This document shows positions 4,518-18,883 of a stretch of 64,000 bases of DNA, in pieces (within the stretch, counting starts at the first letter, position 1; each line of letters starts with the position of its first letter). Below the pieces are notes generated by a model that saw only the letters and a list, made by a program, of their open reading frames with translations, did no database searches and had not been told where the DNA came from. The position numbers were made by a program, and so were the translations under genes. Source of the DNA: a virus. Lineage: Duplodnaviria; Caudoviricetes. The stretch spans positions 64,001 to 128,000 of the IMG/VR virus record IMGVR_UViG_2974778117_000001. The stretch is one strand, 5' to 3'.

Positions 4518-6025
4518 CAACCTCAATCATTCCAGTCCTAGAGAGCAGGATTCCTGAGTTCGCTCGGGAATCCTACCCCTACTTTGTCAAGTTCATCAAA
4601 GACTACTTGACTTGGCTGGAACAGGACGACAACTTCCTGGGTATCGCCAACAACTGGCAACACAACATGGAACCGTCCAATGATGTGGAGCCGTATGTCA
4701 GCGCGATCCTGCGTGACCTTGGATTTGACGTGGCTCAAGACCTGTCAGTTCCGAAGTCCGTGCTGTTGCACTTCTTGCGTGACTTCTATCTGAGCCGAGG
4801 CACAGAGACGTCATTCAAGTTCCTGTTCCGCGCGCTGTTCAACTCGCCGGTAGAGATTCGCTACCCACGTGAGGAGATGCTGATTCCGTCCATCGCCAAC
4901 TATGCGAGCCGGAGCTACATCTTCACCTCAGCGAACAATCGCAACATCCGAGAATTCACCTCGCTTGTCAACTATGTGCGCGAGTATAGCGGTGAGCTCG
5001 TCGGGTTGACTTCCGAAGCTCGGACTAGCATCGAGAATATCAGCATCGTGTATGGACAGGGCACGCCCTACCTACTGATTGAGATTCTGGCTCCGCTGAC
5101 TGAGTTCCAGGTAGGTGAGCAGGTCAACATCATCGGGAACATCACGATCTCCGAACAGGTCAAGCCGGTTCTGTCGATCAAGATCAAGAACCCCGGGTCG
5201 CTGTATCAACCGGACGACTTGGTCTATGCCGATGGCCCGAACCTCCCGGGACGTGCATCTATTGCAGCTGTCAGCTCTGGCGGTGTGACTGGAGTGCAGA
5301 TCGACTCGCCGGGTGCAGGCTATCAGGTTGGTGATCGCATCTACGCAAGCTCGCTGGATAACGGCTGGGGCTTCAACGCTTACGTCACCGAAGTAGATGC
5401 AAACGGTGGCATCACTCAGGTTAGAGTCTCTTCAAAGGGCTACAGCTATGAAACTCTCCCAATGTTGCAAGTTCGCCAGACAGCGAACCCAGCAAAACTT
5501 GTTGCGATCAGCAGTGAAATTGGGGCTATCACCCGCATCCAAATCGCGGACCCGTTCGTTGACTTTGACGATGTGGCATTTGACATTGTCAGCGATTTCG
5601 GTAGCGGAGCGGTGCTTGAAGCTGAGCAAGTAAGCAGATATGAGACCCGAGAGTGGCTAGACCGCCGAGGCGTGATTGCTGAAGCCAGTACCATCATCGA
5701 CTCTGATAAATATCAACAGTTCTCCTATACCATTGTAAGCCCCATCCCCGCCGACCGCTATGATGCGTTTGTGGATGATCTGCTCCACCCAGCAGGCTAC
5801 ATCCGGACCAGCACATACGAAATCTACACCGCTGGTGAGATCGAAGTGGTTCCGGGCGGAGAGGAAGAGCAACCGTTGCCGCCGTTCGTGTTCATCGGCG
5901 ATCTGGTTCTCGCCTTGGAAGGTGGCTATGGTATGGACGTGATCGAGCAAGACATCATCGTCACAGACCTTGGTGATCCGATCATCACCGACGTGGAAAC
6001 TCCAATCTTGTATACAAAGGGTTAA
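4514..6025 (+). CDS. Baseplate wedge initiator gp7-like
   Basis: IPEF..E.YP.FV.F, FYLSRGTE.SFKFLFRALF, YQQFSY, LHPAG; synteny gp6-gp7-gp8. Confidence 0.75.
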   Translation: MTTSIIPVLESRIPEFARESYPYFVKFIKDYLTWLEQDDNFLGIANNWQHNMEPSNDVEPYVSAILRDLGFDVAQDLSVPKSVLLHFLRDFYLSRGTETSFKFLFRALFNSPVEIRYPREEMLIPSIANYASRSYIFTSANNRNIREFTSLVNYVREYSGELVGLTSEARTSIENISIVYGQGTPYLLIEILAPLTEFQVGEQVNIIGNITISEQVKPVLSIKIKNPGSLYQPDDLVYADGPNLPGRASIAAVSSGGVTGVQIDSPGAGYQVGDRIYASSLDNGWGFNAYVTEVDANGGITQVRVSSKGYSYETLPMLQVRQTANPAKLVAISSEIGAITRIQIADPFVDFDDVAFDIVSDFGSGAVLEAEQVSRYETREWLDRRGVIAEASTIIDSDKYQQFSYTIVSPIPADRYDAFVDDLLHPAGYIRTSTYEIYTAGEIEVVPGGEEEQPLPPFVFIGDLVLALEGGYGMDVIEQDIIVTDLGDPIITDVETPILYTKG

Positions 6026-6029
6026 GCTC

Positions 6030-7573
6030 ATGCCGTTCGCATTCACTCCACAAGTCAACACATTCGTTGCGGCTAACCTGATTGCCGGCATCCGCTCCTT
6101 GAAGCCATCAGCTAGACGTCCTCTGACACCGTACTCTCAGGGTACGCGTGTGGTCAATGGAGACAACGAGTACATCTCGATTCAGGGTGGGACTACCAGC
6201 TCTGGATCAGGCCCGACCGCTACCTCGGGCACCCAGTTCGACGGCACTGTCCAGTGGCTCGCGCTGGGATCAAACGCAGTACGAGATGGTGACATCAACG
6301 CCAACCTGTACATGTCAATCGGCAAGCAGACCGAGTGGCCCAACCCGACGACACCTCCGGCACCGGATCTCTCGGGCGCAAGTCAAGCTCAAGCGAAGTC
6401 CGATGCAACCGCTTTCCTCCAGGTCAAGCCCGACAACGTGCGACTGGGAATCAAGAACAACGCCTGGACAACCGGCACGATCTATTCTCAGTTCGATCCG
6501 AGCATTGACCAGTCGACCTATCCAACTCCGAACTACGTGATCGTTGACCAGACGTTCGTCTACAAGTGCCTCGACAACAACAATGGTGTGGCTTCCACAG
6601 TCCAGCCGGTCGGCACCTCGACCAACGTGATTGAGCTCAGCGATGGCTACATCTGGAAGTACGTTGCGCGATTGCTGCCAAGGATGTGATCGACTTCGGC
6701 AACACTCAGTTCTCTCCTCTCCCAACAGCGGTGGGTACGGCGCAGCCGGGTTCCATCTCAACATTCAAGGGCTTGGTCTCGTCATCAACTCCGTTCTCCG
6801 ACACAGCCACCATCGCCACAAAGGTGATCGGTTCCGGTAACGGCGCGTCGGCAGCGGTGAGGACAACGACTTCAGGCAATCAGGTCACACTGACCGGACT
6901 CTTCTCCTCAACTGGTGGTACTGGCTACAATGCAAATCCGACTCCGTATGCAATTGCTTATGACTCAGCTGCGACTGGCGATGGTGCAACTATCGCTACT
7001 ACTATTGCGTCCGGTGGAGTATCTGGTCTCTCGGTGACAACCGGCGGTTCAGGTTACACCGACGCTTTCGCAGTGATCATCGGTGACGGCACGGGCGCAA
7101 CGGCAAACGTGACCGTCTCGGGTGGTCAGATCACCAACGTCACCGTGGGTGCTGCTGGTACTGGATACACCTGGGCAATCGCGGTCGTGATTCCAGGTAC
7201 TGCTGGTGGTGCTGCTCCTGCGGTGCTCGCTCCGGTGAATGGTCACGGCTCGGATCTGGAAACAGAATTGCAAGCCAACACTGTCCTGGTGACTGTGCGT
7301 CTACTGGCTGCCCTGTCGGCTTACATCCCGACACAGAGTTCCAGCGTTGACGGTTCATTCCGTCAGATCACGCTGATCTCGGGTGTTCAGGGTTCGACCA
7401 GAAACGCGGAAGCGTATCTTGGTCCAGCAAACACCCAGTACGCGACGAACCCTGGCAACCTCAATAAATATCTGAATGGTAGTGGATATGTGTTGTATAT
7501 GAACAACATTGAGGCAATCATCCACACAGCCACTCAGGAAGAGGTCATCAAGATCTCGATCACACTCAAGTAA
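6030..7573 (+). CDS. Baseplate wedge gp8-like with Gly/Thr-rich extension (apparent 1-nt deletion near 6666)
   Basis: VYKCLDNNNG...STVQP...DGYIWKY; C-terminal YMNNIEAI...QEEVIKISITL; restoring G gives WKYVGAIAAKDVIDF. Confidence 0.75.
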
Positions 7574-7582
7574 AGGTCGATA

Positions 7583-10500
7583 ATGTCTAAGCTAGACTTC
7601 TCAGGAGCGCCATACACTGACGACTTCGATCCGCTGAAGGGGTTCCAGAAGGTTCTCTTCCGTCCGGGTCGAGCGGTTCAGGCGCGTGAGCTCAACCAAA
7701 TCCAGAGCATGTTCGGCAATCAACTGTCGAGCCTAGCTAACCACATCTTCAAGAACGGATCCAAGGTCAGCAACGGTCGCACCGCTCTGGCAGCGAAGTC
7801 GTATGTTCGCCTGCTGAACGATCCGGTTGTGTCGACTTACCCAGCTGGCACTCGCCTTGTCGGTGCAACCTCCGGCATCCAGGCGACTCTGGTCGTTGGT
7901 GTTGACCCGGAGAACGGTGATCCCTCAACCCTGTACGTGGTCTACACCTCGTCGGCAATTGACGGCACTACTTCGACGTTCATTCCGGGCGAGAAGATCA
8001 ACATCCTGGACGAGAACGGTTTCACCGTTGACGAGGTTGAAGTTCGCTGCCCGACTTGCCCAGGTTCCGGTCTGAGCGACACTATCGCTCCGGTTGGTCG
8101 TGGTCAGATGTTCTCGATTGACGAGGGTATCTTCTACTTCGAGGGGATGTTCATTGAGACTCCACCTCAGCAGATTATCGTCACCAAGTATCTGACGTAT
8201 GACACTGACGGCAACATCACCAACTTCGTCCCTTGCAAGATCGGCTTGGACTTCATCCAGTCCATCGTGACCTACAACGAGGACTCATCGCTGCTTGACC
8301 CGGCACTCGGCTATCCCAATAGCACGGCTCCGGGTGCTGACCGTTACAGGACTGAACTGCGACTGGTCAAGCGTGAGTACAATGTCGAGGACGGCGAGAA
8401 CTTCATTCCGCTGGCACGCCTGGGCGAAGGTCTGCGCATCGAGTTCATGAAGATGGACAGCGACTACGCTGACATCATGGACACCATCGCCAAGCGTACC
8501 TACGAGACCAATGGCGACTACACCATCCGTCCGTTCCGCGTCAGCTTCCTGAACAGCAAGAAGAAGACCGCATCTGACCCGCTGGGTTGGAGCGTGAATG
8601 GCAACGACGATGACCTCATCGCTGTCGTGACTCCTTCCGTGGCTTATGTCAAGGGCTATCGTGTCGAGACCATGGCTGACACTCCGGTGGCGTTCCGCAA
8701 GGCACGCGACACCAAGAAGATGGACAGCTTTGTCAAGCACTTCGATGGACGCACCTACATTCTCGGTAAGCCGGCAAGCAACGTGAGCTGGCCCAACCTG
8801 GCGACCGATTCCGGTACGATGGGTGGAACAGTCGTGACCCTGTACGATGGCGTGGCTACCTCGGGTGGCATCGCTGGTCAGGCAATCGGTACGTTCCGAG
8901 TCACCGATATGCAGTATGTGTCGGGCGATGTGGCTGCGAACACCGCGATCTTCAAGTATTACATCTACGATCTGAAACTGCTTCCAGGCTTCAAGCTGTC
9001 GCAGGCTCAGGGCTATGCTGTTTCCAACACTGGCTTCTACACGAACGTTGTCAAGGACGCGACCACCAACCAGGTCGAGATCTACAACAACAACCGTCAG
9101 GCCTTGATCTATCGTCTGGATCGCAACGACGTGAAGAGCCTTCGCTCTATCGCGGACGCGAACAACGGTTCCATCAATGTCGTGGTCCGCCGCAAGCTGA
9201 CTGGTGTTGCTGACGGTTCCGGTTCGGTGACCTTCACGACTTCGAGCAACGAATACTTCGACAACGCTGGTCCGTCGCTGGTCGGCTGGTACACTGCGAG
9301 CGGTACAACCCGGTCGTTCAACGCTTCGGCTGCAGCAAGCCTCAACCCGACAAGCCTGACTCTGAACATCGGTTCGGCTGCAGCGGGTGCATCGGTCACG
9401 GTCATCGCAGACATCCTGCGCACCAACCAGACCGAGAAGCAGAAGCTCCTAACCAAGCTGACGATCAACACTGTGATCGCTCCGGGCGAGAACATCGGCG
9501 ACAAGGTGATGCTGGGTAAGGCAGACGCGTTCCGCCTGAACAGCGTCAAGGTGTTCGTTGACGGTACTCCGACCGATCCAGTTGCCGACGTGACTTCTGA
9601 GTATGAAATCCATACCGGTATCACCGACACTGCTTATGGCGAATCCTGGATCCAGCGAGTCAAGGCTCCGGCATCGCCTATCAGCCCGACAATGCGTCTG
9701 GCTATCAGCTTCGACTACTACGAGCACAGCGGCAATCAGGGCTACTTCACTATTGACTCCTACGCTGCGGCGCTGAATGCTCCAGACAGTGATGTCACCT
9801 ATGATAGCCTGCCGACCTACGTGTCGATGGCTGGCGATTCATACCCGGTGGCAAGCTCTATCGACTTCCGCCCAGTCGTGATTGGTTCTGATCCGGTGAG
9901 CGTGTTGCTTCCGGCAAACGACTCGACCATGACATTTGACATCGAGTATTACCTGAGCCGTGCTGATCTGCTACAGATCAACAAGGATGGCGTGATCTAT
10001 GTCAAGGAAGGTGAGCCGAGCGAAACTCCGCGCATCCCGAAGACTGATGACAATGCAATGGCGCTGTATCAGATCTGGTTGACGCCATACACCTACAGCC
10101 TGAAGGACATCAGCACCAAGTTCATCGAGAACCGCCGCTACACAATGCGTGACATCGGCGCTATCGAGAATCGCTTGACAAACGTGGAGACCATCGTGTC
10201 TCTGAACCTGCTGGAGAAGTCGGCAGCCGATATGAGCATCAAGGACAGCAATGGTCTTGACCGCTACAAGAACGGATTCATCGCTGACAACTTCCAGGAC
10301 TTCCAGGCGGCTGATCTCCAGAGCAAGGAATGGCGTGCAGGTACAGACCGCACCCAGCGTCAGCTACGTCCGAGCTTCAAGGCATCGAACAAGAAGCTGA
10401 AATTCAACCTGGCGAAGTCGATTGGCGTTGCACTCCGCGGTAACGTGGCAACTCTGCCGTTCGACAATGTCATGTACATTGAACAGCCGTACGCTACCAA

Positions 10501-16281: not shown

Positions 16282-16765
16282 CCCATTGGATATGATCTCC
16301 CAGACGTTGAACACAATCACTGGGATGGACAAGCTACCGCGTGAGTCTCAAGTCGAGATTGACGCTGAAGAGGACTATCTCACTGCCCGTAAGAATCTGA
16401 AGGAACTGGTCGAGACAGGCATGGAAATTGTGCCTGACATGATGGCGGTTATGACTGCCACCCAGGATCCCAAGATGTATCAAGCGGCTGCAGCCGTCCT
16501 GAAAAGCGTCGCTGCACTTAACGCACAGATGATGGAAGTATCATCAAAACGAGAGAAGAACACTCGCCCACCAACTCCCCAAAAGCCCGAAGATTCTACC
16601 ACGCACATCGAGGCCAAGGGACCTGTGTACATTGGGACAACGGCTGACATCATCAAACAGAGACGGCTAGCTAAGGAAAAGGAACAGGCAATTGACGTCG
16701 AGGCAGTCCAAGTAAAGGATCCTCGACAAGAAGAGGAGATTCCTGGGGATTCATCAGAAGAGTAA
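16271..16765 (+). CDS. Terminase small subunit gp16
   Basis: DY..AR.NL..L.E.G, P.MY, VYIGTTAD; position between gp15 and gp17. Confidence 0.8.
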   Translation: MMTDPLDMISQTLNTITGMDKLPRESQVEIDAEEDYLTARKNLKELVETGMEIVPDMMAVMTATQDPKMYQAAAAVLKSVAALNAQMMEVSSKREKNTRPPTPQKPEDSTTHIEAKGPVYIGTTADIIKQRRLAKEKEQAIDVEAVQVKDPRQEEEIPGDSSEE

Positions 16766-16769
16766 TCGC

Positions 16770-17215
16770 TAGCAGTCATGAACGTCGCGCTTCGCGCGGG
16801 CTTCGACAGCTGACGCTGTCTCGCCGGTCAACTTGCTTCATGAACCGATCCGGTCTTGATGAACCCTTGGGCTAGCGGACACACTTTGGCCATCTAGGCC
16901 AACGTATGTTCAAAGAACAATACTGACAGTCAAGGGTCCCTTTCGGGGTAGGATGTGGGGAGCGGTGACACCCTGTACCTTGATATTGGTCTCTCGCGAG
17001 ACTCCCGCCATGACTACAGATCGCATGTCATTAGATCAGAGTCAACACCTGTTGCAGCGGAGCAGAGCAGGTCATACTTCAGTGGTTGGTTAGGCCACCT
17101 TGCCTCTTCAATAGGTCTTACTCAGAAAGCGCATCTTACGTCGCGACTACGATTAGCCGACGGCTAGCTTCCACTCATTGTTCATCATATAGTGCCAGAG
17201 GGTGTTCCTCCGACC
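16770..17215 (-). ncRNA. Candidate structured non-coding RNA or origin element antisense between the terminase genes
   Basis: ~500-bp gap without a credible ORF, at least 9 short hairpins including minus-strand GAAA and GCGA tetraloops, and an upstream sigma70-like promoter. Confidence 0.45.
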
Positions 17216-17220
17216 ATGTA

Positions 17221-17249
17221 ATTATAGCGGTGACGAACCGCCAAAACAA
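17221..17249 (-). promoter_or_regulatory. Sigma70-like promoter firing into the gp16-gp17 gap
   Basis: TTGTTT-17 nt-TATAAT on the minus strand. Confidence 0.6.
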
Positions 17250-17272
17250 GACCAGACAGAAAGAGTAACCAG

Positions 17273-18883
17273 ATGTTTGACGAGGATAGTCAATACAAGA
17301 AGGAAGACGCGTACAACGGCAACTCCAAGCTGAAGAAGGCTGGGGTCGAGACTCAGTTCTCCGAATGGGAGCTGGATGAGCTCGAGAAGTGCCAGAATGA
17401 CGTGCACTACTTCATCGCAAACTACTGCATGATCATCTCACTGGACGATGGTCTGGTGCCTTTCCGTATGTTCGGCTATCAGAAGAAGATGGTCGACATT
17501 GTCCTGGCGAATCGCTTCTCGATCTTCAAGTGGCCACGTCAGATGGGCAAGACAACCGTGGTCGCCGCGATCTTGCTCTGGTATGCGATCTTCAATGAAG
17601 AGTATCGAATCGCAATTCTGGCGAACAAGGGCGACCAGTCGAGAGAAATTCTTGCCCGTCTCCAGCTGATGTATGAAGAGCTTCCTTGGTTCATGCAGGT
17701 CGGCGTTTCGGTCTGGAACAAGGGTAACATCAAGCTCGGTAATCGAAGCGAAGTCTTCACAGCGGCGACCGGCGGTTCTTCGATCCGTGGTAAGTCTGTC
17801 AACTTGATGTACCTCGATGAGTTCGCGTTCGTTGAGAATGACGTCGACTTCTACACCTCCACATATCCGGTCGTCACCTCCGGTACCAAGACCAAGGTCA
17901 TCATCACCTCGACCCCGAACGGTATGAACCTGTTCTACAAGATCTGGACAGACTCGACCAACGGGAAGAACAACTACGTCCACAACGAGGCGTTCTGGCA
18001 CGATCATCCGAAGCGAGATCAGGCTTGGAAGGACGAACAGCTCCGAAACATGTCGGAGCGGCAGTTCGAGCAGGAATTCTTGTGCAAGTTCCAGGGTTCA
18101 AGCGATACGCTGCTGTCGCCCGCTAAGCTGGAACAGCTCACCTATCAGGATCACATCCGAGAGCTGGGTGGAAACCGTGACTTCAAGATCTATGAAGACC
18201 CGATCAAGGACGCTTCCTATGTCGTAACCGTGGACGTGTCGGAAGGTATCGGCAAGGACTACTCCGTCATCTCGGTGTTCGACACGACGGAAGCTCCATT
18301 CCGTCAGGTGGCGATGCTCAGATCCAATATCATCGCCCCTCTGATCCTTGCCGACTTGGCGAACCGGATCGGTCACCTCTACAATCAGGCTGTCCTGATC
18401 GTGGAATGCAACAGCATCGGCAACACTGTGGTCACCGCATTGTGGGAAGACTACGAGTACGAGAATCTGCTGATGACCAAGAACAAGGAAGCTGAGTCCA
18501 AGGTCGGTGAAGGTGGCAAGTCTCAACCGGGTGTCAGAACTACGAAGAAGACCAAGCTGATCGGCTGCAGCCAGCTCAAGATGCTCATTGAGTCTGATCA
18601 GCTGATCATTCAGGACTTCGATACCGTTGCAGAACTCAACAGCTTCATCAAGAAGGGTACAAGCTGGGAAGCAGAGCAAGGCAAGACGGATGACATCGTG
18701 ATGACTCTCGTCATCTTCGCATGGTTCGCCTCGCAGCCTTACTTCGCTGAGATGGTCGATCAGAACATCCGCAACCTGGTGAGAGCAAACCTGATGAATC
18801 AGGATGAGTATTGCTCCGCCTTCGGCTTCCTAGATGACGGCTGGGACGATGAAAGTGTTACTGACAATGGTGGTCTTTTCTGA
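17273..18883 (+). CDS. Terminase large subunit gp17
   Basis: Walker A RQMGKTT, Walker B YLDEFAF, STPNGMN, nuclease DVSEG..KDYS and DDIVM. Confidence 0.97.
   Translation: MFDEDSQYKKEDAYNGNSKLKKAGVETQFSEWELDELEKCQNDVHYFIANYCMIISLDDGLVPFRMFGYQKKMVDIVLANRFSIFKWPRQMGKTTVVAAILLWYAIFNEEYRIAILANKGDQSREILARLQLMYEELPWFMQVGVSVWNKGNIKLGNRSEVFTAATGGSSIRGKSVNLMYLDEFAFVENDVDFYTSTYPVVTSGTKTKVIITSTPNGMNLFYKIWTDSTNGKNNYVHNEAFWHDHPKRDQAWKDEQLRNMSERQFEQEFLCKFQGSSDTLLSPAKLEQLTYQDHIRELGGNRDFKIYEDPIKDASYVVTVDVSEGIGKDYSVISVFDTTEAPFRQVAMLRSNIIAPLILADLANRIGHLYNQAVLIVECNSIGNTVVTALWEDYEYENLLMTKNKEAESKVGEGGKSQPGVRTTKKTKLIGCSQLKMLIESDQLIIQDFDTVAELNSFIKKGTSWEAEQGKTDDIVMTLVIFAWFASQPYFAEMVDQNIRNLVRANLMNQDEYCSAFGFLDDGWDDESVTDNGGLF

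Follow-up and report, generated by a model that had tools for sequence, protein, structure and literature searches.

The terminase gap of a Menderavirus genome

The window analysed here, 64,000 nucleotides long, belongs to the genome of a T4-like phage of Stenotrophomonas maltophilia (genus Menderavirus). The gene for the small terminase subunit, TerS (164 aa), stops at position 16765 and that for the large subunit, TerL (536 aa), starts at 17273. The protein-free gap between them (16766-17272) is 507 nt long. In T4 the two terminase genes abut. A previous reading of the sequence alone, made without database searches, had singled out this gap and proposed that its minus strand encodes a large structured RNA that had escaped annotation; the gap it described is real. 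In BLAST searches, positions 16700-17330 matched phage Marzo at 100% identity and phages Ps15, BUCT608, Smp14, YB07, Mendera and others at 98-99.8%.

A single ORF of any size is found in the gap:

16955..17167, plus strand: 70-codon ORF, annotated in Marzo as the hypothetical protein CPT_Marzo_005

Comparison of this frame with the family described below by tblastn revealed in-frame stops in B, X1, BUDD, L013, L024, L011, L027, L043 and L009. Because the frame carries stops in almost every relative, CPT_Marzo_005 is not regarded as a gene, and a protein-coding reading of the gap was rejected. A homing-endonuclease remnant, which the sequence-only reading had named as a possible alternative content, was not found in the gap by tblastn or Rfam searches. 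The hexamer ATGAAC does occur three times at the TerS end of the gap, at 16778, 16840 and 16861, as had been reported, and no conservation of these repeats (window 16778-16866) was found in relatives.

The GenBank records of Mendera, Yut2, Yut3, Bhz51 and Moby are opened within or right beside the gap. Such Menderavirus records end at about 17214-17272 (window coordinates) or begin at about 16971, and at least for Moby the two ends of the record each carry part of the RNA gene.

A family of related RNAs in T4-like phages

Comparison with relatives strongly supports the view that the gap holds a minus-strand gene for a folded non-coding RNA of approximately 330-340 nt, rather than the unit of about 450 nt originally proposed:

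16877..17216, minus strand: conserved RNA core (T-type copy), defined by alignments A4 and A5 of 15-16 homologues, covariation, nhmmer and the covariance model R1

Homologues were recovered by BLAST, by pattern scans on the invariant blocks, by nhmmer and with the covariance model; conserved blocks were matched by BLAST in an intergenic region of the Xanthomonas phages X1 and BUDD, each of which carries two copies of the RNA. About 10 metagenomic phage contigs also carry a member, with representatives in IMG/VR (L009, L010/L016, L011, L017, L024, L041, L043 and L048) and in metagenomes (L013, L025 and L027/L029). At BLAST sensitivity, the cultured phages with the RNA are Menderavirus, X1 and BUDD only, and BLAST searches of cultured phages with three metagenomic members gave no additional hosts. 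The family is so far known only from one clade of T4-like phages.

Family membership was defined by the H3 core (ACCNG-CUCU-RY...RY-AA-CNGGU), H4, the UGGCG element and the S1/H6/S2 pseudoknot, scored with R1. The window copy falls within this definition and is itself a seed sequence of R1. For sequences outside the seed, or not employed as seed, the model gave 84.9-119 bits, and E-values were 1e-43 for L016, 4e-39 for the terminase copy of BUDD (L130) and 7e-31 for L144. Pattern hits L145-L148 were rejected as members, and the hits L012, L018-L023, L026, L028 and L030-L034 were set aside as chance pattern matches, many hits of this kind lying in coding DNA. A scan of 185,579 prokaryotic species genomes for the block-3 pattern gave no true member, the hits being chance matches in coding sequence only.

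No match was obtained when the whole window was searched against Rfam 15 at gathering scores. A permissive search of 16500-17500 returned only three chance snoRNA-like hits (E 1.9-6.5), and searches with 12 related loci gave no match on the RNA element. The RNA is therefore absent from Rfam and belongs to none of its families, including pRNA, GOLLD, ROOL, group I and II introns, tmRNA, RNase P and 6S. No published description was found, and the genome papers on Marzo (PMC8928761), Ps15 (PMC9025141) and X1 (PMC13384950) are silent on the RNA. We consider the existence of the family to be very likely.

The H3 hairpin module also occurs alone (ACCUGCUCUGC-loop-GCAACAGGU) in unrelated viral contigs, amid other structured-looking sequence (L037:3858-3884, L038:12619-12644, which is the same as L040, and L039:597-625). 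The L039 site has tRNA genes on either side, and a GOLLD RNA lies 650 nt downstream of it. The H3 hairpin may be an independent protein- or RNA-binding module.

The RNA lies antisense between the terminase genes in one TerL clade

An all-against-all comparison of flanking ORFs placed the RNA between TerS and TerL, in antisense orientation, in 10 of 10 terminase-gap loci (the window, L009, L011, L024, L025, L027, L041, L048, X1 and BUDD). TerL identity to the window protein is 55-62% among these loci. The gap is present only in the TerL clade with at least 53% identity; at 49% identity or less, the two genes abut or overlap, including in 24 metagenomic loci and in cyanophages.

Three loci within the clade differ in content. 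In ACP17 (Acidovorax), V45v66 (Variovorax) and L047, TerL is 55-56% identical and gaps of 480-660 nt hold structured-looking sequence that R1 does not recognise (best match V45v66, E 0.003). Because the core model misses them, these gap sequences are taken to be remote relatives or replacements. In ACP17 (L131, 1195-1855) and V45v66 (L132), the gap measures about 600 nt, and its minus strand abounds in GNRA-type hairpins and carries a 3' end like that of H9 and the tail, together with a CUAAUC..CCGUC/GACGG motif that resembles block 1.

In L009 (5064-7714, minus strand), the TerL homologue is divided between two ORFs (5064-6134 and 6749-7714) about 600 nt apart. This split could reflect an intron, an intein or a homing-endonuclease insertion.

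The RNA has a conserved, pseudoknotted fold

The density of hairpins, on which the sequence-only reading had relied, was discarded as evidence. The minimum free energy of the single sequence was non-significant against shuffles on both strands (minus, z -0.82; plus, z +0.69), so density is not above chance. Since single-sequence folding performed no better than shuffled sequence, the case rests on comparison.

In a full-length alignment of 15 sequences, 39 pairs in 8 helices were paired in 91.6% of cells, against 78.0 ± 1.0% after column shuffling (0 of 500 shuffles reached the observed value) and 37-48% with slid partners. In a 16-sequence core alignment, 92.6% of the pair cells of 29 pairs were paired (shuffles 70.6%, with 0 of 500 reaching the observed value; slid partners 38-51%). 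Changes on both sides were seen in 21 of the 29 core pairs and 102 cells, compared with 12-28 cells in slid controls, and the core covariation score was 0.605 against 0.174 in shuffles, all values being drawn from sequences of one phage clade, which served both to derive the structure and to score it. As the sequences share one clade, there are fewer independent changes than the cell counts suggest. At least eight helices make up the RNA, with a pseudoknot and hairpins capped by GNRA loops among its elements:

17196..17212, minus strand: 5' hairpin CGGAGG/CCCUCUG, just past the expected start
17139..17167, minus strand: block 1-2 with helix H1 (CGUCG/CGACG), 98.7% paired
17047..17072, minus strand: helix H3, ACCUG/CAGGU plus GC/GC round an invariant CUCU/AA internal loop
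17011..17044, minus strand: helix H4, a 7-bp closing stem with variable interior; 7 of 7 pairs change on both sides, 96.4% paired
16951..17010, minus strand: pseudoknot domain with invariant UGGCG, S1, H6 and S2, from covariation in the core alignment
16938..16948, minus strand: hairpin H8 (CCC-GAAA-GGG), a sequence-variable hairpin 3' of S2 in most members
16915..16921 with 17177-17183, minus strand: tentative long-range helix P1, AUUGUUC with GAACAAU, present in the minimum free energy fold
16877..16902, minus strand: 3' hairpin H9 (UUGGCC/GGCCAA) and conserved tail (G)UGUGUCC

The 5' hairpin shows compensating changes between X1 (CGUCGG/CCGACG) and BUDD (CGUCAC/GUGACG); it is found in L010, L013 and L017 and missing in L048. 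H1 carries one double change (CGUUG/CAACG in L010) and one break (L025); its CGUCG strand may instead pair at long range with UGGCG, invariant at 17006-17010, a rival pairing that is also 100% compatible. H3 is the most conserved element of the RNA, 100% paired in 16 sequences. Its changes are few and compensating (CCUG/CAGG to CCCG/CGGG or CCAG/CUGG): U-A is replaced by C-G in L043 and L048 or by A-U in the terminase copy of X1, and GC/GC becomes AU/AU in L041.

Within the pseudoknot domain, S1 pairs GGGAG (17002-17006) with CUCCC (16958-16962) and has double changes in 4 of 5 pairs, and S2 pairs GGGUGU (16968-16973) with ACAUCC (16951-16956) and has double changes in 3 of 6. Both stems covary and they cross each other, which makes the domain a pseudoknot. 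H6 (UCUC-GCGA-GAGA, 16990-17001), capped by GNRA or UUCG loops, has double changes in all 4 of its pairs. H8 was left unscored because its region aligns poorly. H9 is 80.6% paired despite register slips in 4 rows, and is followed in all members by a 3' tail of consensus YRUGKCY, ending at 16877. Counterparts of P1 were identified with RNAduplex in four relatives, among them L041 (AACAAC/GUUGUU), L009 (UUACA/UGUAA) and L025, and this 5'-3' helix is proposed tentatively.

Several stems picked out by eye in the single sequence correspond to elements of this fold. The GTCTC/GAGAC stem with a GCGA loop is H6, TTGGCC/GGCCAA is H9 (16886-16902) and GAGG/CCTC lies in the 5' hairpin, and all three covary; CCC-GAAA-GGG is kept in relatives as the variable hairpin H8. 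No support from relatives was obtained for TAGCC/GGCTA or TGTTC/GAACA, nor for CAACA/TGTTG, where the conserved pairing is instead the ACCUG/CAGGU plus GC/GC of H3.

Strand, promoter and ends of the RNA

Read on the minus strand, the alignment contains 46 G-U cells against 15 A-C cells, and a G-U pair in S2 is kept in 13 of 16 sequences. The earlier observation that the GNRA loops are correct only when read on the minus strand was borne out. As the G-U bias, the conserved S2 pair, the loops and the promoters all fit, the RNA was assigned to the minus strand, and its covariation in 16 homologues, together with the same bias and promoters, upholds the central proposal of the sequence-only reading.

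17221..17249, minus strand: sigma-70-type promoter TTGTTT-17-TATAAT, read from the sequence; start expected near 17214

This promoter is located exactly where the sequence-only reading had placed it (17249-17221). Its -35 box matches at just 3 of 6 positions, too weakly for the promoter scan, which omits the window's own site. Near-consensus promoters at the same place on the RNA strand are TTGACA-17-TATAAT in L017, TTGACT-17-TATAAT in L048, TTGACA-16-TATTAT in L025 and TTGACA-17-TATAAA in L024. L010 has TTGCAT-16-TACAAT, and a second copy in the phage's own genome (below) has TTGTGA-17-TACAAT. Promoters with at least 9 of 12 matches were present in 7 of 16 upstream regions on the RNA strand, compared with 2 of 16 on the opposite strand. 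About half of the members have no clear sigma-70 promoter, including the X1 group, L009/L011 and L041/L043, so that an own promoter is not a universal feature of the family. Where the RNA starts and ends, and that it is stable, we infer from sequence.

16786..16820, no strand assigned: two hairpins, GACAGC/GCUGUC and CGCGC-GAA-GCGCG, between the RNA 3' end and the TerS stop

Both hairpins had been counted as part of the RNA; they are present, but outside the conserved core. GCGAAGC-type mini-hairpins recur at this place in nearly all terminase-gap loci (L009, L011, L024, L025, L047 and L048) and are not present at the non-terminase copies. These hairpins probably form the ends of two transcripts that converge here, that of TerS and that of the RNA. 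No T-run follows the hairpins at 16786-16820 and no canonical terminator was found there; the only terminator-like site listed by a terminator scan is a weak one at 16737-16720 on the minus strand.

A second copy of the RNA lies among early-type genes

A BLAST search with the gap against the phage's own genome identified a second, diverged copy:

C1:141370-141790 (L004:1464-1849:+), opposite strand to the gap copy: second copy of the RNA in the same genome

The second copy is 62.5% identical to the gap copy overall, with one 60-nt block at 93%, and carries a 5' hairpin with a U-run after it. A DUF6197-like gene flanks it on one side and small ORFs on the other; NAMPT is encoded upstream, and the DprA-like and DUF7277/DUF7275 genes are found downstream. 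Five non-terminase copies (own genome, X1, BUDD, L013 and L043) are co-oriented with their neighbours, downstream of the nicotinamide phosphoribosyltransferase gene and upstream of the DprA-like (phrog_768) and DUF7277-DUF7275 genes. The L016 and L017 copies lie in another neighbourhood. The DprA-like and DUF7277/DUF7275 genes were rejected as shared partners, since they follow the RNA in the five loci and not in L016 or L017, and the flanking-ORF comparison revealed no protein gene common to all loci.

In four lineages (own genome, X1, L043 and L017) a tmRNA of the permuted, two-piece type is encoded 2.5-7.5 kb from the non-terminase copy:

C1:149229-149603: permuted tmRNA, own genome
120978-121428: permuted tmRNA, X1
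L017:6938-7355: permuted tmRNA
L043:9289-end: permuted tmRNA

Complete genomes therefore have two diverged copies, one antisense in the terminase gap and the other among early-type genes near the tmRNA. The two X1 copies are only 54% identical to each other. In a tree of the family, the window copy pairs with the second copy of its own genome (support 0.88) and L041 pairs with L043 (0.71). This pairing of copies from the same lineage, at modest support, suggests gene conversion or repeated duplication.

Proposed function of the RNA

The five non-terminase copies named above run in the same direction as their neighbours and so have no gene to which they could be antisense. Copies at other places, near NAD-salvage genes and tmRNA, indicate that the RNA probably acts in trans. 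We lean towards a stable, compact RNA that would work in trans with a conserved partner or by catalysis, with a possible secondary antisense effect at the terminase locus. Host sigma-70 RNA polymerase would transcribe the RNA early, from the promoter at 17221-17249, and the product would accumulate as a stable species. A conserved partner, be it a protein of the phage or a universal machine of the host, would be bound by the RNA's invariant unpaired elements (the CUCU/AA loop of H3, UGGCG, CCG, CCRAAG and the pseudoknot core); alternatively, these elements would form a catalytic core. Any late mRNA that reads through from TerS to TerL would contain an intercistronic part to which the terminase-gap copy is fully complementary, and the resulting duplex may also dampen or delay TerL expression, as a side effect of location and not as the reason for the fold.

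A main function as a cis-antisense regulator, in which an early minus-strand transcript pairs or collides with late TerS-TerL transcription and sets its timing or ratio, appears fairly unlikely. In its favour, the RNA runs antisense at every one of the 10 terminase-gap loci, in phages with TerL identities of 55-62%; its promoter abuts the TerL start, no strong terminator separates the RNA from TerS, and the 60-nt block shared at 93% identity could allow the second copy to pair with the same mRNA. Plain pairing, however, needs no fold, yet compensating changes have preserved the helices, and the RNA strand shows the G-U bias. The gap copy lies opposite the intercistronic region and covers neither coding sequence nor the TerL ribosome-binding site, which is upstream of the RNA start. 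The co-orientation of the copies at other loci and the low identity of the two X1 copies (54%) also argue against it. The antisense timer envisaged in the sequence-only reading is a possible role for the terminase-gap copy only. The strict placement and orientation between TerS and TerL in 10 of 10 loci could mean that a cis role is ranked too low here.

The location between the two terminase genes also brings to mind a packaging-linked RNA, similar in function to the phi29 pRNA: a cofactor or scaffold of the terminase-portal motor, or an aid to DNA recognition by TerS. The position is conserved in 10 loci, and the gap is restricted to the TerL clade with at least 53% identity, the genes abutting at 49% or less; this synteny can, however, be explained by vertical descent within one clade. 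Packaging motors of the T4 type are not known to require RNA. The RNA has no Rfam pRNA match and no likeness to the phi29 pRNA, the phage has a TerS, and each complete genome carries a second copy far from the terminase genes. That the RNA is a functional part of T4-type packaging, as a terminase- or portal-bound cofactor or a ribozyme-like RNA for head filling, is considered very improbable.

We regard it as very improbable that the RNA is an origin transcript, priming DNA synthesis either by way of an R-loop, like the transcripts of T4 oriF/oriG, or as a primer that is itself folded, like ColE1 RNA II. A promoter-driven non-coding transcript in two copies per genome would suit this role, and cumulative GC skew reaches its lowest point at 79.8 kb, only 1 kb away from the RNA; in X1 the minimum is at 39-41 kb, at the terminase gap. 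Nearly all genes of the phage's own genome are on one strand, and the minimum arises from codon positions 1-2, through a lower G-over-C in the upstream tail and baseplate genes. It therefore reflects the amino-acid make-up of these syntenic genes. At four-fold degenerate sites the minimum vanishes in both genomes, with no switch in the sign of the skew at either locus, and GC skew was rejected as support for an origin. There is also no skew inflection at the second copy, and an R-loop primer would need no invariant pseudoknot core. The primer or origin role suggested by the sequence-only reading is thus not borne out by the skew.

Least probable of all is a reading with no RNA function, in which the sequence was left behind by, or travels with, a mobile element (a degenerate intron or homing cassette), or is a site that acts as DNA, for example pac: the gap is an insertion relative to T4, where the genes abut, and related clades (ACP17, V45v66 and L047) hold unrelated or unrecognisably diverged sequence in it, but there is no Rfam group I or II intron match and no ORF remnant or conserved ORF, the flanks are two complete, separate genes, and helices and unpaired blocks are under strong purifying selection across phages with 55% TerL identity.

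Comparison with known phage RNAs

GOLLD and ROOL are large ornate non-coding RNAs of approximately 580-800 nt, often found on phages and prophages near tRNA genes. The gap RNA resembles them in being large, highly structured, protein-free and phage-borne, and one of its copies lies close to tRNA/tmRNA genes. It differs in its size of about 330 nt, in having no match in sequence or structure to GOLLD or ROOL of Rfam, and in its occurrence in proteobacterial T4-like phages as two copies per genome, one of them fixed between the terminase genes.

The phi29-type pRNA is 120-174 nt long, has two loops that pair between molecules, and is expressed from an early promoter in phages without TerS. Both are phage-encoded structured RNAs, the gap RNA probably also with an early promoter, and the gap RNA physically adjoins packaging genes, but at about 330 nt, with no Rfam match, a TerS in the phage and a second copy away from packaging genes, it is not of the phi29 type.

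The T4 'anti-late' transcripts and cis-antisense phage RNAs such as lambda OOP and P22 sar act by plain complementarity. The gap RNA shares with them a host-type promoter reading against late or neighbouring genes, and differs in its conserved pseudoknotted fold and in having paralogues that are antisense to nothing. With ColE1 RNA II and the T4 oriF and oriG transcripts it has in common a promoter-driven non-coding transcript, and RNA II is also large and folded; the gap RNA, however, lacks the signature of an R-loop or primer-RNA origin, with no replication-direction skew at four-fold sites in the codon-position test and no DNA-unwinding element identified at the RNA.

By these comparisons (phi29, introns, Rfam and origin), the gap RNA belongs to none of the GOLLD/ROOL, phi29 pRNA or primer RNA kinds, and it is probably not a plain cis-antisense RNA; these four are the kinds nearest to it. 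Its recognition corrects existing annotation, as one GenBank record has a spurious protein inside the RNA and several are cut open in or right beside it. Were the packaging role (cofactor or ribozyme) true, this would be the first RNA-dependent packaging system outside the phi29 group. Large RNAs that combine pseudoknots with invariant unpaired cores are rare, and those whose functions have been solved have tended to yield new biochemistry. The RNA described here occurs in cultivable lytic phages (Stenotrophomonas Menderavirus species and Xanthomonas X1 and BUDD), in two copies that can be deleted separately, and has kept its place between TerS and TerL through deep divergence; these features make it a tractable subject for the study of phage RNA function.
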